DNA from: an uncultured Gammaproteobacteria bacterium
Lineage (GTDB): Bacteria; Patescibacteriota; Microgenomatia; Levybacterales; GWA1-39-11
Assembly: GCA_964409875.1 (NCBI GenBank)
Contig: CAYPEN010000002.1
Span: 65,067 to 129,066 of the forward strand
Direction of reading: 5' to 3'
DNA: 64,000 nt
The translations under genes were made by a program, and so were the position numbers. Position 1 is the stretch's first letter, and each line of letters starts with the position of its first letter. Below are positions 2,674 through 55,606 of the stretch, piece by piece. The notes below the pieces were generated by a model. It did not search any database, was not told the origin of the DNA, and worked only from the letters and a program-made list of their open reading frames with translations.

Positions 2674-5600
2674 TTACTGGCACACAGCGGCATTAGGAGT
2701 ATTTAATTTACTTGAAACACCCGACCCCAATCCTTGATTCCCTAAGAGGCTACCCCAACACTTTATTGTCCCTGAACTTGTTCTCCCACAGATAAGATAC
2801 TCATTACTACTAAGACTTGTTATTCCATTTACCACACTTGTTGTAAGAAATGTAGTACTACTTGTCGGAGATGAACCCCACAAAGTACCAGAACCGGAAC
2901 ATTTTACACTCCCATCTCCTAAAACGGCGCAGATTGCATCTCTTAGACCAGCAAATCCTACTACATTTGTAAGGCCGGTTGGGACTACGGGTGAATTAGT
3001 AGAATAGGTAGAACCGTTTCCCAATTGGCCTGATGAATTAGCACCCCAACATTTAGCGGTAGAATCAGAAAGTACAGCACAAACATTAAAAGAGAACGAA
3101 TATACTTTCGTTGCTGTCGATATGCCTGAAACCTGAACAGGAACAGTCGTATCAGAGTTGGAGCCGTTACCTAATGCGCCGTCGGTTCCAGAACCCCAAC
3201 ACCATACGGTTCCATCACTTTTTACAGCGCAGGCAACATCTGTTCCGACTGACACATCAACTGCCGTAGTTATTCCCGAAACTTGAACAGGTATTGTAGT
3301 GTTTGTAGTGGAACCATTACCTAATTTTGAAGCCTGACCGCTTCCCCAAGGGTCAGCATATCCCCAACACCATATAGTATTATTATTCTTAAGTGCGCAG
3401 GCGGTTCCTCCTGACGTAGATACTTTGGTTATATTTGTAAGTCCTGAAATTTGATTTGGAGTACCTGACTCAGATGATAAACCATTTGCATATCTACTAC
3501 CCCAACATTTTACTGTGTTATCAGTAAGCAACGCACATCTGCCACCATAACCAACAGAGACTTTAGATGCATTAATTATACCAACAGAAACAGGCTCCCA
3601 TGAACCCACATCGTTTGTTACACCATTACCTAGCTGTCCACTACCATTTGTACCCCAACACTTAACTCTTCCATTACTGAGTGCAGCACAATTTCCATAA
3701 TCCCCTCCACCACCACTCATATAGTCTACCGCAGTAGTGATGCCATATACGGTTGATGCAGCATTGGTAGTATCAGTTCCTCCTCCAAATTGTGACAATA
3801 TACTTCTACCTCCCCAAAATCTAATTGTCCCATTGCTTAAGACTACTCCAGCTAAGTCTGCTGGTCCATACCCTGGTATAAGTGTTGAAGCAGTAGTTAT
3901 CCCACTAACCGTTCTTGGTTGATACAAGGGACTATTCGAATAATATGAAATAGGATCCCCACTACCTAACTGTCCGTAATCATTATATCCCCAACACATT
4001 ACGGTTCCATTCGATAAGAGTGCACATGGACCACCATCATGAGTTGAAACATCGATAGCGGTTGTTATCCCTGTAACTGATGTTCCCGGTGTACTTTGGC
4101 TCGAACTATTTCCGTTCCCTAACATTGAAGCATCTCCCCAGCATTTTATTGTGTTATCTGAAAGAAGTATACATGAACCTCGAAAGCCATCAGTAGCAAC
4201 CTTTGATGCAGTTGTAATTCCTGTAACAACAACCGGAGTTGAGCTCTGGGTATTAATACCGTCGCCCAAACCACCTGAGTTCATACCCCAACACTTTACT
4301 GTGCCGTCATTAAGTCTAGCGCATGATGAATACCATCCTGTACTAATTTGAGTTGCGGTAGAAATGCCTGTTACATCTACAGGGGTTGAAGAATTGCTAG
4401 TGCCGCCGTTTCCGAGTTGACTATAGGCACCCCAACCCCAACATTTAACACCCCCCGTACTGAGGAGTGCGCAGGTATGATCGCTCCCCAGGTTAACCAT
4501 AGTTGCATTTGATATACCTGTTACAGTTACAGGAGTTGAAGAGCTATAAGTGTTACCATTCCCGAGTTGGCCTGAGTAACCATTCCCCCAGCACTTTATC
4601 GTCTTATCAGAAAGAATTGCGCACGCGTGACTGCTGCCTACAGAGACCGAAGTTGCATTGCTTATTCCCGACACAGTCACCGGTACACTTGACTCTGTTG
4701 TAGTACCGTTTCCGAGTTGGCCATAATAGTTGTACCCCCAACATTTAACATTACCTGAAACGACCATGCAAACACTATTCCCCCCAATTGAAATTGAGGT
4801 TGGAGATGCTGCAAGTGGAGTGGACTTTGCAGCATTGGCATCACTGCAATCTTGTCCTGCAGTGACGCTATAACCACTGGGCAATGACGACCCTGTGCAA
4901 ACCGATGTAGAATTAAATGTGTATACACCATCTCCATCCAAATCCCTATATCCGGTTAGGTTTTGCCATTTGGCTGCATCAACATCATCACAATCACTAC
5001 CACTGGAGGTCAAAGTATAACCTGAAGGAACACTTACTCCTATGCACTGAGAAAAACCACTCCCCGTATACCCATCTCCGTCGAGGTCAGGGTATATAGT
5101 AGGATTACGGTACAATGATGCTGATGTATCGTCACAATCCGAGCTTCCTAAAGCAAGAGTTGTATTGGTAAGGATATATGAACCCGAAGAACTTTTGTAA
5201 TACGTTCTTGAGCCAACCACAGAAGTGTTCCCAACACAAGTCATTGCGCCGGAGCCTACATAATATCCATCCTGGTCGTTATCAACCGCTAGATTTGCTA
5301 CATTCTGAAATATATTAACATTTGCGTCATTACAGTCGGTAGATGCCGGGTTTGCGATATAATTTGATGGCAAACTATTCCCAGAGCAGATAGGTTGCGT
5401 AACAAGTGTTGCTGCATATCCATCTCCATCGCTGTCAGATGCCCCCGGCAAAAGTTGCCATTTTGTTCCATCATTTGGGGAACAGTCAATAAGTCCCGAT
5501 GTATTAAGATTCCGTCTCATGTATCCCGATTGGGGTGAGGTTGAAATTATTTGGGCAGTGTTATTAGCATTATCGGGCAGGCCATCACCATCTGTATCAG

Positions 5601-6837
5601 GTATCCATACTGCACCACGTACAATACTACCACCTGCAAATTTCACAATACTTGCACCCGGCATATAAAGAATTCCATACGCGATTCTTTGACCGCTATT
5701 AATAGTAAGCGTTTTTCCCTTATCTATAGTAAGTATTCCAGTATTGCTTTGCCCGCTTCCCCTATCTATCCCATCAACGGTTGAAGGAAATGAACAGCTT
5801 GATAAAATTGTATAATCATTGTCTGGATTATTTGACAGACATTTTGAACTTCCAGTCTGTGTAAAACTATTAACAGTTCCATATGTTATACCCATAGAAT
5901 TTACTGCAATCGGGCAATAATAATACGTATTACCCGGAATAAGACCGGTAACAGTCTTTGACAACGAGTTATTCGCCCCTACTCCATTAAATAAGGATGT
6001 ATCAGTTATATTCGGTAAATTTTGACAAGATGTATTTTGGGTTCCCCATAAAAAGTAGGCGGTTGTATTTGCATTATTATCTCCAACAGTTGCTGTTAGG
6101 CTTGTCGAAATAGCATCTACATTGCTATTCCCAATGGAGCTTATTGATGGAGCCGATTGCATTGTATATAAAGTTGCAGTGTCCGTCTTTGTGGGACTGT
6201 TTACTGCATTTATATCGGCAGTAGCTAATAACCCGGTGTCGTCCTCTACTCCTGCAGTCACTGTATTCCCGTTAGTAGAAGTTGTTCCACCATAATGTAT
6301 TTCAATGTTGTTAGTAGTCTCATATAACTTAATTTCAAAATTGACATCAGCAGAGTTGCCGCAACATCTCGGTATTCCACTGAATTGCACGATAAATCTC
6401 CTATTTGGTGCTGTACCAAGAGTTGTATATTGTATGGTCCCGTTTCCCGGCGGATAAAGATCTGTCCACCATCCGGCAATAATATTATTAATAGAAGCCC
6501 CAGGTAAAGTAGCTCCGCTGCAGCAACCACTACTACTTAAACTCGTGTTAAATGATATAAACCCATTACTTGAAACAATAAGTTGATTATAGGAATTACC
6601 ATAAAAACTGAAGTTAAAAGGCATAGTAATTATTGAAGATAGTGCATCATCACTGAGGGATAAGGTCGTTCCTGTAAATGTTTCCCAGTTGACAGAAATA
6701 GTCTGTGTTATATATGTACCAGTTCCAGCATAAATACTTGAAGGAGTAAAAAAGAAGAGAAAAAACAAAAAAACACCGGTAACAATTTTTAGCTTATACG
6801 ATCTAGGGAGCAAATTTATGAGCAGGTTTTTATTCAT
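2674..6837 (-). CDS. Giant secreted surface protein with RCC1-like (KCWG..GQLGNG) beta-propeller repeats and DxDGDG calcium-binding-like motifs
   Basis: 1387 aa, signal peptide/TM at N-terminus; >10 tandem repeats of ~50 aa with C-W-G-x-N-x-x-G-Q-L-G-N-G signature (RCC1/ATS1 family); several DxDGDGY motifs. Confidence 0.8.
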   Translation of the reverse strand: MNKNLLINLLPRSYKLKIVTGVFLFFLFFFTPSSIYAGTGTYITQTISVNWETFTGTTLSLSDDALSSIITMPFNFSFYGNSYNQLIVSSNGFISFNTSLSSSGCCSGATLPGASINNIIAGWWTDLYPPGNGTIQYTTLGTAPNRRFIVQFSGIPRCCGNSADVNFEIKLYETTNNIEIHYGGTTSTNGNTVTAGVEDDTGLLATADINAVNSPTKTDTATLYTMQSAPSISSIGNSNVDAISTSLTATVGDNNANTTAYFLWGTQNTSCQNLPNITDTSLFNGVGANNSLSKTVTGLIPGNTYYYCPIAVNSMGITYGTVNSFTQTGSSKCLSNNPDNDYTILSSCSFPSTVDGIDRGSGQSNTGILTIDKGKTLTINSGQRIAYGILYMPGASIVKFAGGSIVRGAVWIPDTDGDGLPDNANNTAQIISTSPQSGYMRRNLNTSGLIDCSPNDGTKWQLLPGASDSDGDGYAATLVTQPICSGNSLPSNYIANPASTDCNDANVNIFQNVANLAVDNDQDGYYVGSGAMTCVGNTSVVGSRTYYKSSSGSYILTNTTLALGSSDCDDTSASLYRNPTIYPDLDGDGYTGSGFSQCIGVSVPSGYTLTSSGSDCDDVDAAKWQNLTGYRDLDGDGVYTFNSTSVCTGSSLPSGYSVTAGQDCSDANAAKSTPLAASPTSISIGGNSVCMVVSGNVKCWGYNYYGQLGNGTTTESSVPVTVSGISNATSVSVGSSHACAILSDKTIKCWGNGYSGQLGNGNTYSSSTPVTVTGISNATMVNLGSDHTCALLSTGGVKCWGWGAYSQLGNGGTSNSSTPVDVTGISTATQISTGWYSSCARLNDGTVKCWGMNSGGLGDGINTQSSTPVVVTGITTASKVATDGFRGSCILLSDNTIKCWGDASMLGNGNSSSQSTPGTSVTGITTAIDVSTHDGGPCALLSNGTVMCWGYNDYGQLGSGDPISYYSNSPLYQPRTVSGITTASTLIPGYGPADLAGVVLSNGTIRFWGGRSILSQFGGGTDTTNAASTVYGITTAVDYMSGGGGDYGNCAALSNGRVKCWGTNGSGQLGNGVTNDVGSWEPVSVGIINASKVSVGYGGRCALLTDNTVKCWGSRYANGLSSESGTPNQISGLTNITKVSTSGGTACALKNNNTIWCWGYADPWGSGQASKLGNGSTTNTTIPVQVSGITTAVDVSVGTDVACAVKSDGTVWCWGSGTDGALGNGSNSDTTVPVQVSGISTATKVYSFSFNVCAVLSDSTAKCWGANSSGQLGNGSTYSTNSPVVPTGLTNVVGFAGLRDAICAVLGDGSVKCSGSGTLWGSSPTSSTTFLTTSVVNGITSLSSNEYLICGRTSSGTIKCWGSLLGNQGLGSGVSSKLNTPNAAVCQ

Positions 6838-7015
6838 ACAATATACCTACTTTTAGAATAATCAATTCAAAATAGGCTGTCAATCAAAAAAATTTCCTTG
6901 ACAGACCTTTTTAAAATTTGCTATTGTGAGTATATTCCCTATTTAATGGAGTCCGTAATATTTTTTAAGCTTTTTTTAAGGGGTTGAACCGTTTAATGGA
7001 TAGAGAGACATTATT

Positions 7016-9178
7016 ATGAATACAAAATCTGCCTCATCATTTTTGACAAGTATTGCGACTGTTGTCACAGCCAGCATCTTTTTCCTATTTCCACTTTTTT
7101 TCCTGACCATAACAACCGACTTTTTTACATTCCCAAAACAAATCCTTATCGTCTTCGGAAGCCTCTTGCTTCTTGTTTTGTGGGGTGTGAAGGTTGTCAT
7201 TGACAAGCGGATAACGCTTGTAACAAATCCCCTGAATGTACCTATCCTTCTTTTTGCTCTCGTCTTAATCCTCTCTACATTTTTTTCTGCATCTCTTCAG
7301 GATGCAATTCTCCAGTCAACGCCGGTTATACTTCTGTGCGTCTTCTTTTTTACAACTGTAAATTTCATACAGGAAAAATCATCGTACGCGATAGTGCTTA
7401 CTTCTCTTATAATAGGAAGCTCTCTTTCTGCAGTGCTCAGTGTGTTCGCACATTTTAATGTGTATCTGCTTCCATTCGAAGCGGTAAAATCCCAAACGTT
7501 CAATACTCATGGCTCTCCTATTCAATACGCGGCATTTCTGCTTCCCTTGCTTGCGCTTTGCCTCACTTCCTTAATTACCATCGTTAAAAAGGGCAAACTG
7601 AACGCCATATCAAAGGATTACACAAAATTACTTCAACTGGGGGCTACTGTTATATTCGCAGTCGGACTTGGGTTGGTGGTATATCAAATTGCATCTTCTC
7701 CGCAAAAACCTATTTTGCTTCCTTTCAATCATGGCTTCCAGGTTGCTTTTGCAGCTATCAGTCAGGATTCGCAGCGTCTCGCACAGTCACTACTCGTTGG
7801 CTCAGGATACGGTACGTTCTCAACGGACTTTACACGGTATATCACCCCTACATTTAATACGTATTCGTTCTGGAATCTTACTTTTGCATTTTCTTCTTCA
7901 TATGTGTTGGAGCTCTTGGCAACAACCGGAGTTTTGGGACTTTTTGCTTTTGCCTTTATCTTTGTCAATCTCTTGAGAAGTAAAAGCAAAATTAGCAATC
8001 CGGTGTTTTTGGCAACGTTGGTCGTTTTTGGCCTTTCACTTGTTATTCCGTTCTCTTATTCGATGGTATTTTTGCTTTTCGCGCTTTTAAGCCTATTCGT
8101 CTCACATAGAAGTATTGAGAATGCAAAAGGCTTTGACACTATCAGCCTTAATTTAGTTGCCCTCAAACAAGGCCTTATTTCATTGGGGGAGGAACATGAA
8201 AAAAAGAAAGAAAATCTCGCCTTGCCGGTCATCATACTCGCCCTTACTCTATTGGTTTCAGTTTTCGTACTTTTCTACCTCACAGGGTCCGGTGCCACTC
8301 CACGAAAGGGATATGTTGCGCTGGTGAATTCCGATATCCTTTTTGCAAAATCCTTTACGCAACAAGCGTTGCGCTCGGGAACTGAAACATATAATCTGGA
8401 AACCCAAGCCATCAACGAGTATCCATATCGCAGTGACTATTACAGACTCTTTTCACAAATAAACCTGGCACTTGCTGCAAACATTGTCAATGCACAGCAA
8501 GGCAAAAAACCAACAGATGAGGTACAAAACAATATTATTGCACTTCTTCAACAAAGCATTAACAGCGCGCGTCAAGCGGTTACTCTCTCCCCATTTGTAT
8601 CAATAAATTGGCAGAATTTGGGACAAATCTACCGCAATCTTATCGGTGTCGGCCAAAATGCAGAACAGTTCGCTGTAGCCTCCTATAATCAAGCAATAAC
8701 CCTCAACCCCTCAAATCCAGGCCTTAGAATTGAACTTGGTGGGGTGTATTATCAGCTCAAGCAATGGGATTTGGCTCAAAACCAGTTCACAATTGCTGCA
8801 CAGCTTAAAAATGATTACGCCAATGCCTATTACAATTTAGGTCATGTTCTTGAAGAAAAAGGTGACCTTCAAAACGCGCTTACCCAATACCAAACAGTTC
8901 AGCAATTGGTCGCAAATGACAAGGCCAACCTTGATAAAATAACCTCTGAAATAAAAGCAGTTCAAGATAAAATAGGAAAAGCGCAAGCAAATATCCAAAC
9001 CAAAACCCCGACCGAAGACACTACACCTCTTGGGGTAGCAAAGCCTCAAGCTGAATTCCCTCCAAAAGATCCGCGCGTCAAGATACCTGAGCCTCCAAAA
9101 GGCAAGGTATCCCCTACCCCCAGCCCATCGGTAAGCCCAACGGCAAGTCCCTCACCGAGCGCAGAACCTAACCAATAG
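7016..9178 (+). CDS. O-antigen ligase-like (Wzy_C) polytopic membrane protein with C-terminal TPR repeats and Pro/Ser-rich tail
   Basis: About 10 TM segments; Wzy_C-like loop (SYVLELLATTGVLGLFAF); C-terminal TPR-like repeats (AYYNLGHVLEEKGDLQNALTQY) and PSPSVSPTASPSPS tail. Confidence 0.7.
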   Translation: MNTKSASSFLTSIATVVTASIFFLFPLFFLTITTDFFTFPKQILIVFGSLLLLVLWGVKVVIDKRITLVTNPLNVPILLFALVLILSTFFSASLQDAILQSTPVILLCVFFFTTVNFIQEKSSYAIVLTSLIIGSSLSAVLSVFAHFNVYLLPFEAVKSQTFNTHGSPIQYAAFLLPLLALCLTSLITIVKKGKLNAISKDYTKLLQLGATVIFAVGLGLVVYQIASSPQKPILLPFNHGFQVAFAAISQDSQRLAQSLLVGSGYGTFSTDFTRYITPTFNTYSFWNLTFAFSSSYVLELLATTGVLGLFAFAFIFVNLLRSKSKISNPVFLATLVVFGLSLVIPFSYSMVFLLFALLSLFVSHRSIENAKGFDTISLNLVALKQGLISLGEEHEKKKENLALPVIILALTLLVSVFVLFYLTGSGATPRKGYVALVNSDILFAKSFTQQALRSGTETYNLETQAINEYPYRSDYYRLFSQINLALAANIVNAQQGKKPTDEVQNNIIALLQQSINSARQAVTLSPFVSINWQNLGQIYRNLIGVGQNAEQFAVASYNQAITLNPSNPGLRIELGGVYYQLKQWDLAQNQFTIAAQLKNDYANAYYNLGHVLEEKGDLQNALTQYQTVQQLVANDKANLDKITSEIKAVQDKIGKAQANIQTKTPTEDTTPLGVAKPQAEFPPKDPRVKIPEPPKGKVSPTPSPSVSPTASPSPSAEPNQ

Positions 9179-9220
9179 CTAATAGACAATAGCTGATAGT
9201 TGATAGTTAATAGCTAGTAG
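9177..9220. repeat. Stop-codon-dense palindromic low-complexity block (AGCTAATAG/GATAGTT motifs) upstream of four-helix-bundle gene
   Basis: agctaatagacaatagctgatagttgatagttaatagctagtag; TAG/TGA/TAA in all frames; shares agctaata, agctagta (direct) and agctgatagtt (inverted) with block at 9622-9653. Confidence 0.6.
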
Positions 9221-9234
9221 AGAATAATGAATTC

Positions 9235-9606
9235 ATGGCGAATATTTCCTCGTTTAGAGATTTACTTGTGTGGCAAGAAGGACATAAACTTGTAATTTCT
9301 ATCTATCAACTAACTCAAAATTTTCCAGCAAATGAGCAATTTGGGTTAACCAATCAGTTGCGTCGAGCTAAGGTTTCTATAACTAGTAATATTGCTGAAG
9401 GTTTCGTACGAAAGAATAAGAAGGAAAAAATACAATTCTATTTTATGTCTTTAGGTTCATTAGCTGAAGTTCAAAACCAAATACTTATTGCTCTTGATGT
9501 TAAATATATCAAAAGTCAAGATTATGAAAAAGTATTTGAGCAAACAGAAACCATAGGTAGATTGTTAAATAGCCTTATTAAGGCTACAAATAATCGATCT
9601 TTCTAA
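9235..9606 (+). CDS. Four-helix-bundle protein (the family often found in 23S rRNA intervening sequences)
   Basis: 123 aa; motifs NEQFGLTNQLRRA..SITSNIAEGF and SLGSLAEVQNQ characteristic of the four-helix-bundle/IVS-protein family. Confidence 0.8.
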   Translation: MANISSFRDLLVWQEGHKLVISIYQLTQNFPANEQFGLTNQLRRAKVSITSNIAEGFVRKNKKEKIQFYFMSLGSLAEVQNQILIALDVKYIKSQDYEKVFEQTETIGRLLNSLIKATNNRSF

Positions 9607-9621
9607 ACCCCTCCAATTTTA

Positions 9622-9653
9622 ACAGCTAATATCTACTAACTATCAGCTAGTAT
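9622..9653. repeat. Partner palindromic repeat block downstream of four-helix-bundle gene
   Basis: acagctaatatctactaactatcagctagtat; inverted match (agctgatagtt) and direct matches to 9177-9220 block. Confidence 0.55.
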
Positions 9654-9760
9654 TTCTTTTCCCCTAATGGAGAAAAGAAAGTGGGTCAGAAGCTCGACCC
9701 TTTACCCTAATATAGGAATGACAGAGGGTCGTTTCGCAACCCATTAAGCTAGATAACAAC

Positions 9761-10954
9761 CTAGTGAAGGAAGCTTAATGGGTCGTAGAAGTTGCCGCCG
9801 GAACGGACTTCGAAATGCAGATGAGGTCCGGTAGTTCTACCCGTCAGGCCCACCCAACCTACCACGGTTGAGCCTGCTGTTACTCTTTGTCCCGAGGACA
9901 CATTGAGCGAGCTCATGTGCGCGTAAAGGGTCTGATATCCGTTGTCTCCTGAAATTATGACATGGGTTCCATACCCATAATTCCAGCCTCCTGCAATAGC
10001 TTCACTGACCACTCCTGATTGAGCAGCCACCACGGGAGTTCCGAGAGGCGCACCAAGGTCAACCGCCTTGTGGTACCAGCTGAAGTACTGGTTCATAGTA
10101 CCCTGTACCGGCCATGAGAATCCGGCTCCGCTTACAGCCCTTGGGCTTGTCGTGGTTGGTCCACGTCGGGCGATATATACAGGAGCCGCTTGAGGCTGAA
10201 CCCCGTCAGGCACGATAATAGTCTGGCCTACCACCAATGAGAACGTTTGAGGGTCGGCAAAGTCGTTGAAAGGGAAATCGACTATCGCCTGCGGATTTGA
10301 ACTGTATTTTTTGGCAATGGTATAAATTGTGTCGCCTGAAGCTACTTTGTGTGCGATTCCGGTCACAGGAAGGATTTTAAGTGAATCCCCCACCGTAATA
10401 CTGTCATCGCTGAGGTCATTTTCCCACTTAATTGTGTCTTCTGAAATACCATATTTCTTGGCAATTCCAGACAATGTATCACCTTTTTGGACAGTGTAAC
10501 TGATAATTTCTGAGCGTGGTTTTTCAGACAGTTGCGTTTGAAATACATCCTGCGGTGCAATACTTTGCTTCTGGTCAGTAAGATCTTGGGCAAAAGAAAG
10601 GAGATTTTGGTTCTTGGAGAACGGATTTTGTTCCGTAATAAGAGGAGAGATGAGCACACCAAAGGACAATACGGCCATAGCCGAAACGTGCAGAAAGAAC
10701 CGGTTTCTCTTCCCTCGCTTGATAAGGATTGATTTAACAACGGTATTTTTATTCTTCTCAAAGATATTGGAGAAGAACATTACTTTATCTTTTGAATATG
10801 AGGATAAAAATAGCAGAAAACTTCCAAATTCACTCCTCAAATAATGCAATGTCTGAAAAATACCTTGAAGTTTTGAATGTTGGAAAAATCGAGGCAATCT
10901 ACCCATGGTAAACCCGTGCTTTACAGGACGCATATGAAGATTCAAGTGTACCAA
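9761..10954 (-). CDS. LysM-domain M23 family metallopeptidase (cell-wall endopeptidase)
   Basis: Two LysM motifs (GDTLSGIAKKYGIS, GDTIYTIAKKYSSN) and C-terminal M23 signature (GTHVIISGDNGYQTLYAHMSS...GPHLHFEVR). True start possibly internal (MFFSNIF...). Confidence 0.85.
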   Translation of the reverse strand: MVHLNLHMRPVKHGFTMGRLPRFFQHSKLQGIFQTLHYLRSEFGSFLLFLSSYSKDKVMFFSNIFEKNKNTVVKSILIKRGKRNRFFLHVSAMAVLSFGVLISPLITEQNPFSKNQNLLSFAQDLTDQKQSIAPQDVFQTQLSEKPRSEIISYTVQKGDTLSGIAKKYGISEDTIKWENDLSDDSITVGDSLKILPVTGIAHKVASGDTIYTIAKKYSSNPQAIVDFPFNDFADPQTFSLVVGQTIIVPDGVQPQAAPVYIARRGPTTTSPRAVSGAGFSWPVQGTMNQYFSWYHKAVDLGAPLGTPVVAAQSGVVSEAIAGGWNYGYGTHVIISGDNGYQTLYAHMSSLNVSSGQRVTAGSTVVGWVGLTGRTTGPHLHFEVRSGGNFYDPLSFLH

Positions 10955-43974: not shown

Positions 43975-45153
43975 ATGATCCGGTTGCTGCCTTATTTCCT
44001 CTTTTTCCTACTAGCGCTTGAGGGACTCGGAATTCCTAACGGCCGGGAACTGGCATATGCAATTCTCGTACTGGGTTCTCCAATATTTTTTATCCACACT
44101 TTTTTTCAAAAAAAAGCATTTAAAATACCCAGAACGATAACAATACTTTTCATATTATTAATTGTTTCTGCTTTTATATCTTCATTTATGGGTTTAAAAC
44201 CGCAAAATTCTCTTCAATATTCTTTTCTGTTACTGTCAATCTTTTTCCTTTTTCTCGTTGCATATAACAATCAAAAAGAACTCACAAAACCAATCATAGT
44301 AGTAATTTTTCTTTCCTCTGCGCTCTTTACTCTTTATTCAGCTCTTCTTTCCTTTCATATTAATTTCCCCCTGCCTGCAAATGGTTACCAGTTCGTATTT
44401 TCGAAATTCGGCTCGCACAACCACCTCGGCGACTTTCTGGTTCTTCCTTCAATAATTTGCCTATATTACTTATATAACCGCAAGTATGTATTACTAGCTA
44501 TTAGCTATCAGTTATTTGCTATTATTTTCATTTTTTTCTCCTACTCCCGATCTGCATACCTTTCATTAGCATTAACAACAATTTTGCTGCATTTAATGTA
44601 TTTAAAATCTAAAAACTCTTTACACACCATACTTCTATCAAGGCTTTTAATGCTCATATTAGTTCTTTCATCAGCTTTTTTTATTGTCGCAACAACCCGC
44701 CAGGCAATAACCCAACCCTTATCAAAAGAAGTAAATGAAACGCTCGTTAAAAAAGGAGGTTTAAAGCATAAAGAATTATTGGGCAATAGGCTTGAGTATA
44801 TAAGGCAATCTCTCCTCTCAGTACAAAAAAACTCAATTTTTGGCATTGGTCCTAACAATTTTTTGTTAGTTTCCAAAACGTATGCACCCAAAAAATCTTT
44901 AATTACTGAAGCTACTCACAACATTTTTCTTGAAATACTCGTAGGACAGGGAATTTTAGGGCTTTTGCCTTTTATCACTATTAACATCCTTATATTGATA
45001 AAATCCAAAAAAAATGCCCTTTATTTCGGGTTGGTGGCATTGCTTATCAATTTCCAAACAGATTATACGTACCAAATTTATTCGTTTCTTCTTCTATTTT
45101 TTGTCCTAAGTGGCGTGATTTTAGAACAACCTAACCATAATCCTAACTCGTGA
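43975..45153 (+). CDS. O-antigen ligase-like (Wzy_C) membrane protein
   Basis: Polytopic; FSYSRSAYLSLALTTILL loop typical of Wzy_C. Confidence 0.6.
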   Translation: MIRLLPYFLFFLLALEGLGIPNGRELAYAILVLGSPIFFIHTFFQKKAFKIPRTITILFILLIVSAFISSFMGLKPQNSLQYSFLLLSIFFLFLVAYNNQKELTKPIIVVIFLSSALFTLYSALLSFHINFPLPANGYQFVFSKFGSHNHLGDFLVLPSIICLYYLYNRKYVLLAISYQLFAIIFIFFSYSRSAYLSLALTTILLHLMYLKSKNSLHTILLSRLLMLILVLSSAFFIVATTRQAITQPLSKEVNETLVKKGGLKHKELLGNRLEYIRQSLLSVQKNSIFGIGPNNFLLVSKTYAPKKSLITEATHNIFLEILVGQGILGLLPFITINILILIKSKKNALYFGLVALLINFQTDYTYQIYSFLLLFFVLSGVILEQPNHNPNS

Positions 45154-53557: not shown

Positions 53558-55606
53558 CTACCGCAGAACTCCTACTAACTTTAGCACGTAAGGCATGACT
53601 TGGGTTATTTGAGGCTTTTTAAAACCCAATTTTCTATTTGAGAGCAATACGCCGGGTACTTCGGTCGGGTCAAAAAGGTGATCCCCGCTCCATTTATAAG
53701 TTCTCTTTGTTATCACATCAGGAGTTGTCGCCCCTATCGCGCTGTCCCAGGATGAGCGCGTTCCTTTATAAAAACCTAAAATCAGATCAGGTGCGTAGTT
53801 ATCATCGGGTGAAACACCCATCTCTTCTCTTGTATAAACGTGCTTCATTATCTTATCTCCCGTTTGAGGATTTATCTCATCCATTAATTTTTGAATGATC
53901 TCTTTTTGTAACTCTCGTATATCTTTAGGATGAACTGATCCTTCTTCTTCGCGTCCTGAAATATTGAAAAACACACTGTTGTATCCTGCAGCATACGCTT
54001 TCGTCTTGCTCCAATCGACAGAATCATATAATGGTCCGGATTCATTTGCTCCCTCTCTTAATACCAAATAACCATTCTTGACCAAGAAAGTATTAACGTT
54101 CATTTCGTAATCAAATGAATAAAACCCATGATCGGAAAGTATCAGGAAAGTCGTATCCTTATCCATTTTTGCAATGGTCTGCCCTACTATCTCATCCATT
54201 TTTTCATAATACTGGTTTATCGTGTCATGATATGGACTGTTTTGATCTTTTAAAAATCGCCAGAACATATGAGAAATTGTATCCGGCATGCCAAAATAGG
54301 CAAAAAGGATTCCGTTGTTGTAAGAGGCAAGCTTTGAGTAATAAATTTTCTTTCTTTCGGCAAGAATTGAATCTGCTTGCTTAAGGAAAGCCTTTTCATC
54401 AAACACGTTCTCTTCCAAAGCCCAGGTGTCATGCGGAAGACCCAAAGTTGAGTACAACCCAAGCTCCTTTGAGAGTTTTGCAGAAAATCCTTTCGGTGCA
54501 GAAATAGGTTTTAAAGGTGTTTCAGGGTCAAAATTAATGGGTGACATATACAACTCAATGTCGGGAGATACACTTTTGAGGTAAAACTTGGCTATCCCTT
54601 TAACTTTTGTAAAGAAGTCTATGCCAAATTCCAAACGTTTCCAATCGGAAAACTCCCCTTTAGCAATTTTGAAAGTTTGCTTTTGAACGCTAATTTCAAC
54701 AGAAGAATCCTTAATAACCTTAATGGTAAGCGGAACTGTTGCTACTTTTGTATCGTTACCGCCATTATATTTTGGTCCCTCTATATTTGTATCTATTGTC
54801 TTTTTATATGAAACGGGAATTACTTTTCCCCTCCAGGTATAATCATTGGTCGGATACTTTCTTGTAGTAAAAAGCGTAAATGTTCCCTGAGTTCCAAGGA
54901 CATCGGGTACCCCCATTCCTGCAATCATCTCGCCAGTCAGTGATTTTGGCGGCTCGAAAGTATCGGGCAAAAATAAAACGGTAACTGGAACTTTGTTTGC
55001 GGTTGTCTTTTCCCAAAAAGGAGTTGCATGAAGTGTCGTTGTATTTTTGTCGTTGCCTGAAAAGACTAAATTTAGGCCGTAATTTGCAGGATCCCGCTCA
55101 ATAAAGTCATATACTCCGTGCTGTGAAGGATTCTCCCCAGTTATAAAACTCGCCCATGCAACTGGGGACTGAGGCGGAACAACCGTTGCAAGAGGAGAGA
55201 AATAGCCCGTATCTTTAAGTTTTTTTAAATTTTTAAACCTTCCATTTTTCCACCCTTCTTCAAGAATATTTGGGTCCATTCCGTCAAAACCCAATATGAT
55301 TACTTTTTTTGTTTGCTTGGTGCCCAACAGAGACATACCCCCAATTATACCAGCGAATAAAACAAGCAAAATAAGAACAACAATAACGCTCTTTTTTCTG
55401 AAAAACGGGAATATTTTATATCTTAAATAGAATAAGCTCGAACCCAAAGCTCCCAGTATAACAGCAAGAAAAATTGGAATATTTGAACCCAATACGTATC
55501 CTGACCCAGGGTCTATATAGTTTAAAATCAATTGTGGATTTGAAAGAAGGGTTGCTGTGTACTGCAATTGCACCTCGCTTGCTGCTATTTGACAAAGAGC
55601 GCACAT
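53558..55606 (-). CDS. Type I phosphodiesterase/nucleotide pyrophosphatase family (alkaline phosphatase superfamily) membrane-anchored protein
   Basis: VIILGFDGMDPNILEE...ATVVPPQSPVAWASFITG motif block; N-terminal TMs. Confidence 0.75.
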   Translation of the reverse strand: MCALCQIAASEVQLQYTATLLSNPQLILNYIDPGSGYVLGSNIPIFLAVILGALGSSLFYLRYKIFPFFRKKSVIVVLILLVLFAGIIGGMSLLGTKQTKKVIILGFDGMDPNILEEGWKNGRFKNLKKLKDTGYFSPLATVVPPQSPVAWASFITGENPSQHGVYDFIERDPANYGLNLVFSGNDKNTTTLHATPFWEKTTANKVPVTVLFLPDTFEPPKSLTGEMIAGMGVPDVLGTQGTFTLFTTRKYPTNDYTWRGKVIPVSYKKTIDTNIEGPKYNGGNDTKVATVPLTIKVIKDSSVEISVQKQTFKIAKGEFSDWKRLEFGIDFFTKVKGIAKFYLKSVSPDIELYMSPINFDPETPLKPISAPKGFSAKLSKELGLYSTLGLPHDTWALEENVFDEKAFLKQADSILAERKKIYYSKLASYNNGILFAYFGMPDTISHMFWRFLKDQNSPYHDTINQYYEKMDEIVGQTIAKMDKDTTFLILSDHGFYSFDYEMNVNTFLVKNGYLVLREGANESGPLYDSVDWSKTKAYAAGYNSVFFNISGREEEGSVHPKDIRELQKEIIQKLMDEINPQTGDKIMKHVYTREEMGVSPDDNYAPDLILGFYKGTRSSWDSAIGATTPDVITKRTYKWSGDHLFDPTEVPGVLLSNRKLGFKKPQITQVMPYVLKLVGVLR

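Follow-up and report, generated by a model that had tools for sequence, protein, structure and literature searches.

A stem-bracketed four-helix-bundle gene in a candidate-phyla genome resembles the ORF-carrying elements of 23S rRNA intervening sequences

Introduction

The Coxiella burnetii intervening sequence carries an open reading frame (ORF), S23p, which is preceded by tandem GACAGAT heptamers of strain-variable copy number, and the element is closed by a 28-bp terminal stem that is cut by RNase III and has a G+C content below that of the genome (PMC4990558). The S23p ORF is decaying and its protein is apparently not made; the discussion of the same study notes that an origin from transposons was suggested for intervening sequences early on (PMC4990558). 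In candidate phyla, insertions in ribosomal RNA (rRNA) genes encode a LAGLIDADG, a GIY-YIG or a PF05635 protein at shared sites (PMC11270868). Here we describe a PF05635 four-helix-bundle gene that lies outside rRNA, in a 64-kb stretch of contig CAYPEN010000002.1 (assembly GCA_964409875.1; positions 65,067 to 129,066, forward strand) from an uncultured bacterium that GTDB places in Patescibacteriota; this whole stretch is referred to below as the window. An initial annotation, made from the letters of the window, had proposed that the gene and two flanking, stop-dense repeat blocks form a small insertion module.

Beggiatoaceae, cyanobacteria and Bacteroidetes are known to carry heptamer direct repeats immediately ahead of start codons; the TAACTGA repeats most often end 1 nt before the start codon, and a translational role was proposed for them. 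Four-helix-bundle and S23 genes are not mentioned in that study (PMC4679880). The four-helix-bundle gene family, the terminal stems of intervening sequences and the heptamers of the Coxiella element are already known. By contrast, no description was found in the searchable literature of free-standing copies that share an arm-ORF-arm design as a rule, of arms that are locus-specific heptamer arrays with a fixed polarity, of four-helix-bundle cassettes that swap with GIY-YIG cassettes at fixed spacers, or of a general link between PF05635 genes and heptamer arrays. To our knowledge, what the PF05635 proteins do and where rRNA intervening sequences come from have been open questions since 1993, and the function of the cyanobacterial STRR-type heptamer repeats has been unknown since 1990.

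Results

Heptamer arrays flank the window gene and are predicted to pair

The product of the window gene matches PF05635 (23S_rRNA_IVP) over the full domain (1-106/106; 126.7 bits, cut-off 33.8; E 5.2e-37) and TIGR02436 ("four helix bundle protein"; 121.5 bits, cut-off 24; E 1.7e-35), in agreement with the 123-aa four-helix-bundle gene of the initial annotation. Its fold and its assembly into a pentamer are predicted from similarity in sequence to the nearest solved structures, 2GSC (E 1.3e-20) and 2RLD. The gene is present as a single copy in the 64 kb (tblastn) and has a G+C content of ~30%, compared to 39% for the window. The protein has no match among defence-system models (PADLOC) at E <= 0.01, no four-helix-bundle homologue was found in phage records and no Rfam family matches within 8900-10000.

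The gene is bracketed by two arrays of heptanucleotides (Table 1). The upstream array is composed of the units AATAGCT, AATAGAC, AATAGCT, GATAGTT, GATAGTT, AATAGCT, AGTAGAG and AATAATG (56 nt), is reported by Tandem Repeats Finder (TRF) with periods of 7, 14 and 21, contains repeat families spaced 14 and 21 nt apart and ends 5 nt before the ATG. Its first heptamer includes the stop codon (TAG, 9176-9178) of the preceding gene, which encodes a TPR protein. The downstream array is composed of AACAGCT, AATATCT, ACTAACT, ATCAGCT and AGTATTT (35 nt). The blocks had been described as low-complexity stretches of 30-45 bp; they are present, more regular than that description and of different lengths. 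The blocks share the direct match AGCTAATA, at 9177 and 9624, and a perfect 12-nt inverted repeat, TAGCTGATAGTT (9190) and AACTATCAGCTA (9638), that is unique in the 64 kb, confirming that matches of both kinds connect them. The inverted arms extend over 35 nt with 77% complementarity. The inverted-repeat score is 16 (6.8 ± 1.05 in shuffles), and the arm-to-arm duplex energy is -29.8 kcal/mol (-14.8 ± 3.7 kcal/mol in shuffles). When the RNA spanning 9165-9665 is folded, 9190-9215 pairs with 9624-9649 in both the minimum-free-energy (MFE) and the centroid structures via 23 pairs and 3 single mismatches, a predicted stem that would leave the ORF within a loop of 408 nt. Two arms of a stem is a better description of the blocks.

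Relatives L002, L003 and L004 retain both the gene and the arms, and ATAGTTGATAGTTA is invariant across the three; it is present too in L182 and L183, which have no four-helix-bundle gene. Relatives that keep the gene thus keep the repeats, contrary to the finding that the initial annotation had named as refuting its proposal. Between the window and L004, one clear compensatory double change was counted by eye in the arms, a number too small to argue from. No other copy of the exact blocks was found in the window. A period-7 TAGCTAT run of 4.3 copies at 44495-44524, which resembles the cassette unit, lies in frame within a long coding ORF (43975-45153) and was treated as a coincidence rather than as a further block copy.

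The arm-ORF-arm design is the rule in the PF05635 family

The family was sampled at 80 loci with four-helix-bundle homologues (43-59% identical) from species-representative genomes, mostly of candidate-phyla bacteria with some Bacteroidota, Nitrospira and Chloroflexota. The names borne by homologues also suggest a candidate-phyla (Patescibacteria) source for the window. Read directly, these loci have a short tandem array abutting the ATG, and the reverse complement of that array abuts the stop codon. The units differ from locus to locus (AAGAAGT, GTAGTAA, GAATTAT, GTATCTA, CGCATAA, GGGAGTA and others), while the two arms match within each locus; other four-helix-bundle genes therefore carry flanks analogous to those of the window gene and different in sequence. 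Among 83 upstream flanks, 66 have 7 as their best period; downstream, 63 of 83 do. With an array caller, 54 of 82 four-helix-bundle genes had period-7 arrays on each side and a further 19 on one side, whereas random window pairs from the same loci had arrays on both sides in 3 cases, on one side in 24 and on neither in 378; this control excluded genes that share a spacer with a four-helix-bundle gene.

The arms pair strongly: the duplex z score is below -3 in 39 of 83 four-helix-bundle loci, compared to 6% of control genes. The median distance from the end of the stem is 1 nt to the ATG and likewise 1 nt to the stop codon, and the arrays often reach into the first and last codons, as seen in a wide-flank duplex search that over-extends and is noisy. 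The arrays also have a polarity. G exceeds C in the upstream arm at 77 of 83 loci (C makes up only 8%), and C exceeds G in the downstream arm at 71 of 83. These data show that the arm-ORF-arm design is the rule for the PF05635 family, inside and outside rRNA.

Stop codons in all three frames had been noted in the window blocks and proposed to terminate read-through translation from the upstream gene. The stops are indeed there: on the plus strand the upstream block holds 13 stop triplets in 56 nt, where 5.8 are expected from composition, on the minus strand the downstream block holds 6 (3.3 expected), and in each case all three frames are closed. Across the family, however, the proposal is supported only in part: upstream arms carry 3.29 stop triplets compared to 3.14 predicted from their C-poor composition, so that the stop-rich arm of the window does not extend to a family-wide excess; what the period does is spread the stops, which occupy all three frames in 47% of family arms and 25% of shuffles.

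Spacer contents are exchanged among relatives

Many metagenomic relatives share the gene order Rho - M23 - spacer - TPR, and the M23|TPR spacer, in which the window gene lies, is variable. Spacer alleles were compared by pairwise BLAST and direct reading. Across the relatives the spacer contains one of three unrelated four-helix-bundle cassettes, which occur in both orientations, or GIY-YIG cassettes, or it has no ORF at all. The window and L003 differ at 9 of 639 nt over 9164-9802 (98.6% identity), a tract that covers the arms, the gene and the terminator hairpins, yet their flanking genes are about 85% identical (74-93% per 100 nt). The complementary case is provided by L170 and L171, which have the same Rho protein and flanks that are 99.7-99.8% identical over 7.4 and 3.3 kb. 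The L170 spacer contains a different four-helix-bundle cassette of reversed orientation, whose arms are of the AAGTTGG type and whose ORF is interrupted by a nonsense codon; the L171 spacer contains a 91-aa GIY-YIG gene with its own inverted repeats of ~30 nt. Divergence of the two starts ~40 nt inside the gene ends. The same swap of a four-helix-bundle for a GIY-YIG cassette is seen in the neighbouring Rho|M23 spacer, in L185 compared to L182-184.

Other alleles extend this series. At the same spacer, L091 has a PF05635 gene that is 28% identical to that of the window and is bordered by TTCAGAA-type arms. L182 and L183 retain the window-type upstream array, followed by nested GIY-YIG cassettes and no four-helix-bundle gene. 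Alleles without an ORF, with spacers of 217-244 nt, occur in L174-176 and L178 and provide the empty sites that the initial annotation had suggested looking for; no heptamer array was seen on direct reading of the L174 and L178 spacers. Together, the alleles show that the spacer content has been repeatedly replaced, and the position of the exchange boundaries inside the ends of the flanking genes indicates that this occurred most simply by homologous recombination through those genes. Taken together, the varying spacer contents and the 98.6% island strongly support the view that the window element behaves as a swappable cassette, a small insertion module rather than ordinary intergenic sequence, as had been suggested. 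The exchanged unit, however, is larger than the 9177-9653 first proposed and includes the last codons of both neighbouring genes.

The GIY-YIG cassettes occupy the same spacers as four-helix-bundle cassettes in sister strains. They encode proteins of 91-98 aa (L171:7441-7857; L085:3489-3940; L182:4719-5229 and 6406-7000) and have inverted repeats of ~30 nt of the form GTCATTCTGAG...CGAAGAATC and its complement, or a GTCATTGCGA variant. In L182, one GIY-YIG cassette is nested within the remnant of another. More distant relatives (L097-L158, e.g. L157:5555-5842) have in the M23|TPR spacer a gene for a ~95-aa double treble-clef zinc finger (PF13451 and PF23477), which is conserved among them and absent from the lineage of the window.

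Copies in cultured organisms

The same design is found in cultured bacteria. The Azospirillum lipoferum copy lies inside a large-subunit rRNA (RF02541, 401 bits), i.e. in a 23S rRNA gene, and has heptamer arms, GAGGACG/GATGACA at one end and the complementary sequence at the other. On the Nostoc punctiforme plasmid pNPUN01, eight TCAGGAG units are matched by CTCCTGA downstream, and a Riemerella plasmid copy shows the same arm-ORF-arm arrangement. A plasmid copy in Picosynechococcus sp. PCC 7003 (L166, NZ_CP016476.1 126543-126899), also with heptamer arms, lies in a type III-B operon, with cas10/cmr2 on one side and cmr3 on the other. A large clustering survey lists "23S rRNA IVP" among CRISPR-linked proteins (PMC10910872); insertions like the Picosynechococcus copy could explain that listing.

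Conservation of the gene and its upstream arm

Compared to L004, the window gene has proportions of nonsynonymous and synonymous differences (pN and pS) of 0.21 and 0.79, the latter saturated, and a third-position identity of 43%, while the upstream arms of the two are 68% identical. Saturated synonymous sites, a low pN and this arm identity argue that both the protein and the upstream arm are constrained. Judged from these substitutions, the protein is under purifying selection and the gene is functional in the window. In the closest relatives, L002 (1844 region) and L003 (648 region), the ATG start is changed to ATT (window 9237), which would be either a rare start codon or a freshly inactivated copy. 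A nonsense change, CAA to TAA, interrupts the L170 gene (L170:7475-7837) at a conserved Gln and is also present in L172 and L173; these three would be either pseudogenes or cases of read-through.

Other features of the locus

Upstream of the element is the gene for a 720-aa TPR/membrane protein (7016-9178, plus strand) and downstream is a convergent gene for a LysM-M23 peptidase (9761-10954, minus strand), followed by rho. A gene for a 1387-aa, secreted-looking protein with many RCC1/WD40-like repeats adjoins the locus at 2674-6837 (minus strand). Both hexamers of the promoter-like site in the 5' arm, and their spacing, are kept in L004. Few genes of the window have a Shine-Dalgarno sequence, and in 11 of its 43 long ORFs a -10-like hexamer stands 7-12 nt ahead of the start codon (e.g. 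28969, 55633, 53558-55606), which suggests that leaderless mRNAs are widespread in the source organism.

The hairpin module GGGTCAGAAGCTCGACCC is shared with L174 and occurs in L086 as GGATC...GATCC. A 30-nt direct repeat (77% identical; window 9658-9687 and 9701-9730) carries the G+C-rich hairpin modules GGGTCAGAAGCTCGACCC and GGGTCGTTTCGCAACCC. In L174 (reverse complement of 7600-7930) the two modules stand in reverse order, indicating a rearrangement of the terminator modules that follow the cassette.

Table 1 Features of the four-helix-bundle locus in window coordinates
Feature	Position	Strand	Evidence
Four-helix-bundle protein gene (PF05635 / TIGR02436), 123 aa	9235..9606	+	profile matches, PDB relatives, selection
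Upstream heptanucleotide array, 8 units, consensus [AG]ATAG[CT]T	9174..9229	+	sequence, repeat families, TRF
Downstream heptanucleotide array, 5 units, approximately the reverse complement of the upstream array	9621..9655	+	sequence
5' arm of predicted long-range stem	9190..9215	+	MFE and centroid folds, 12-nt core
3' arm of predicted long-range stem	9624..9649	+	inverted repeat, folds
Promoter-like site in the 5' arm: TTGATA, 17 nt, AATAAT, ending 6 nt before the ATG	9200..9228	+	consensus scan, 10/12 matches
Local hairpin immediately following the 3' arm (12-nt arms, 4-nt loop)	9653..9680	.	inverted repeat I10
Terminator-like G+C-rich hairpin serving the convergent M23 gene	9683..9700	-	conserved module in relatives
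Exchanged tract: whole spacer and last codons of both neighbours	9164..9802	.	window compared to L003

Period-7 arrays away from four-helix-bundle genes

In 460 kb chosen via the M23 gene, regardless of four-helix-bundle genes, 46 period-7 arrays were found, compared to 0-11 for each of the other periods among 5-11 and 0 in shuffles. Period 7 is the sole abundant short-period class in the related genomes, at about 10 arrays per 100 kb (L085-L164, L005-L084; e.g. L094:353-417, L067:3568-3672 and L139:3818-3925). Many of the arrays are orphans that do not adjoin a four-helix-bundle gene. Some are inverted hairpins that have loops of 8-80 nt and no ORF, and others surround ordinary genes. Arrays away from four-helix-bundle genes have no polarity relative to their neighbours. 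In L038:1667-4401, one unit family alternates its orientation around SufU, four-helix-bundle and LexA genes, and alternating inverted arrays bracket rho in L151:2226-3740 and the M23 gene in L089:3836-5107. Thus, inverted heptamer arrays can bracket housekeeping genes too.

Discussion

We think it probable that the window element is a free-standing copy of the ORF-carrying type of 23S rRNA intervening-sequence element and is exchanged by recombination. As the upstream array begins at the stop codon of the TPR gene and no terminator is present before 9653-9700, transcription of the TPR gene would be expected to read into the cassette. The stem would form on such read-through transcripts and, by analogy with rRNA intervening sequences, would be cut by RNase III, leaving the cassette RNA and the host mRNA as separate molecules. 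The four-helix-bundle gene may also be expressed as a leaderless or near-leaderless mRNA from the promoter-like site within the 5' arm, a route that the scarcity of Shine-Dalgarno sequences and the -10-like hexamers near starts make plausible. The stops in all frames would be mostly a by-product of repeating a C-poor unit at a period not divisible by three.

Several observations weigh against this model, the weakest link of which is the RNase III step. No rnc motif was seen within the 64-kb window. If the promoter in the 5' arm is real, its transcript would lack that arm and could not form the stem. The window stem lies 19 and 17 nt away from the ORF, beyond the family median. Across the family, sense and antisense duplex energies are alike (30 and 24 loci, respectively; p 0.28), and in ungapped arm alignments the arm mismatches contain no excess of sense-strand G.U (55 compared to 62, with 172 transversions). 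Moreover, period-7 arrays occur in related genomes without any four-helix-bundle gene, including in L182 and L183, which indicates that the arrays may not be a cassette-specific part. Finally, the recombinational exchange read from the alignments is the sole mode of transfer shown, and it does not cover the first placement of the cassette at the site.

The symmetry of the pairing raises the question of whether the arms act in DNA rather than in RNA, either as terminal inverted repeats, hairpins or cruciforms for a recombination or insertion machinery supplied in trans, or as heptamer-array hairpins that were there beforehand and received the ORF in their loop. Equal pairing on both strands with no wobble bias in the mismatches is consistent with such a role, as are the ORF-less inverted heptamer hairpins with loops of 8-80 nt in related genomes, the cassette turnover at fixed spacers and the early proposal of a transposon origin for intervening sequences (PMC4990558). 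However, no transposase or recombinase lies in or adjoins the cassette, the unit sequences vary by locus and so offer no common protein-binding site, and the exchange boundaries within the flanking genes fit homologous recombination over site-specific insertion. A symmetric DNA structure would, in addition, leave the fixed purine-rich polarity relative to the ORF unexplained, and we regard a role in DNA as unlikely. The complementarity itself bears on another proposal, that the arrays are expression signals only, with a promoter, translational control or a three-frame stop barrier upstream, a block to antisense translation or an aid to termination downstream, and complementarity as a secondary matter. 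The promoter-like site that is kept in L004, the few Shine-Dalgarno sequences and leaderless-type spacing in the host genome, the stop-rich upstream block of the window and the persistence of the upstream array without the gene in L182 and L183 can all be read in this way, as can the TAACTGA repeats that most often end 1 nt before starts and their proposed translational role (PMC4679880). But complementarity far above that of shuffles and control genes, which is held while the units change, is then left aside; family-wide stop content equals the composition expectation, and the same arms make an RNase III stem in true intervening sequences. An explanation by expression signals alone is, in our view, improbable.

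The tight association between the gene and the arrays might also reflect an action of the protein, an Avd-like, putatively pentamer-forming nucleic-acid binder, on the arrays, which would consist either in autoregulation through binding to its own flanks or in maintaining and spreading arrays genome-wide. Period 7 being the only abundant short period in the related genomes, the resemblance to Avd of diversity-generating retroelements (DGRs), and the fact that heptamer-rich phyla (cyanobacteria, Bacteroidetes; PMC4679880) also yield plasmid copies of the gene would accord with this. Yet the units vary freely by locus, which would demand recognition by shape or recognition specific to each locus, the high conservation of the protein is not shared by the arms, and the Coxiella protein is apparently not made (PMC4990558), leaving this a very improbable account. 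As for chance, the blocks are A+T-rich and the TAGCTAT run at 44495-44524 shows that a similar sequence can arise within a coding ORF, but the shuffle statistics of the window, the conservation of the blocks in L002-L004 and the family-wide pattern already refute the view that this is low-complexity intergenic sequence around an ordinary gene, and its probability is negligible.

A more general extension of the intervening-sequence model is possible, although we hold it only tentatively and consider it doubtful as a whole. PF05635 genes and their inverted heptamer arrays might constitute one widespread, unrecognised class of stem-bracketed cassettes, of which the rRNA intervening sequences would be a special case that was noticed first, and which would contend with GIY-YIG cassettes for the same sites, both intergenic and in rRNA. 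The many orphan period-7 arrays of candidate phyla, cyanobacteria and Bacteroidetes would then be footprints or landing pads. The competition of cassettes at the TPR|M23 spacer is mirrored by the shared rRNA insertion sites of candidate phyla (PMC11270868). If free-standing four-helix-bundle genes do share the design of intervening sequences, the function of the protein, the origin of intervening sequences and the meaning of heptamer arrays would become testable outside the ribosome. The four-helix-bundle and GIY-YIG cassettes mark recombination hot spots between strains and may account for spurious "associations" of four-helix-bundle proteins with operons such as CRISPR-Cas.

Comparison with known systems

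Among the systems that share individual traits with the window element, integron cassettes with attC sites likewise combine small cargo ORFs with structured, imperfect inverted repeats that vary in sequence but keep their structure, and have variable cargo at one site. The window element differs in having arms on both sides of its ORF, where an integron cassette has a single attC 3' of the ORF, and in an exchange that looks like homologous recombination; it has no attI, and no integrase is present among the genes within ~3 kb on either side (RCC1-repeat, TPR, M23, Rho). The DGR protein Avd is related in four-helix-bundle fold and sequence (PF22296, E 1.3e-9; phrog_3206, E 5e-13). Membership in the Avd family was rejected, as the NF033474 score of 37.7 bits compares to an equivalog cut-off of 80; no reverse transcriptase and no template/variable repeat pair lie near the gene, the only repeats there being the heptamer arms. 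The STRR and TAACTGA repeats (PMC4679880) are also tandem 7-nt units that are intergenic, adjoin start codons, contain forward stop codons and vary in copy number, but the arrays of the window type form an inverted pair around one gene family and have locus-specific units. The GIY-YIG cassettes are closer in organization, with a small ORF within inverted repeats in the same spacers of sister strains and with counterparts in candidate-phyla rRNA insertions (PMC11270868), yet they encode a nuclease, and their flanks are of conserved sequence (GTCATTCTGAG.../...CTCAGAATGAC) rather than heptamer arrays.

The closest system is that of the rRNA intervening sequences (Leptospira; the S23p element in helix 45 of Coxiella burnetii). 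As the window element is located in a spacer between convergent protein genes (TPR and M23) and not in a 16S or 23S rRNA gene, the location that defines the class, it lies outside that class proper. It further differs in that its ORF is under purifying selection, while the Coxiella ORF is decaying and apparently untranslated, and in that it carries a promoter-like site; its excision by RNase III is proposed here by analogy. In other respects the correspondence is close: in both, a PF05635 ORF is enclosed by complementary terminal arms, tandem heptamers (GACAGAT in Coxiella, GAGGACG-type in Azospirillum) stand right before the ATG, the G+C content is below that of the host, and the element is sporadic among close relatives and horizontally exchanged.

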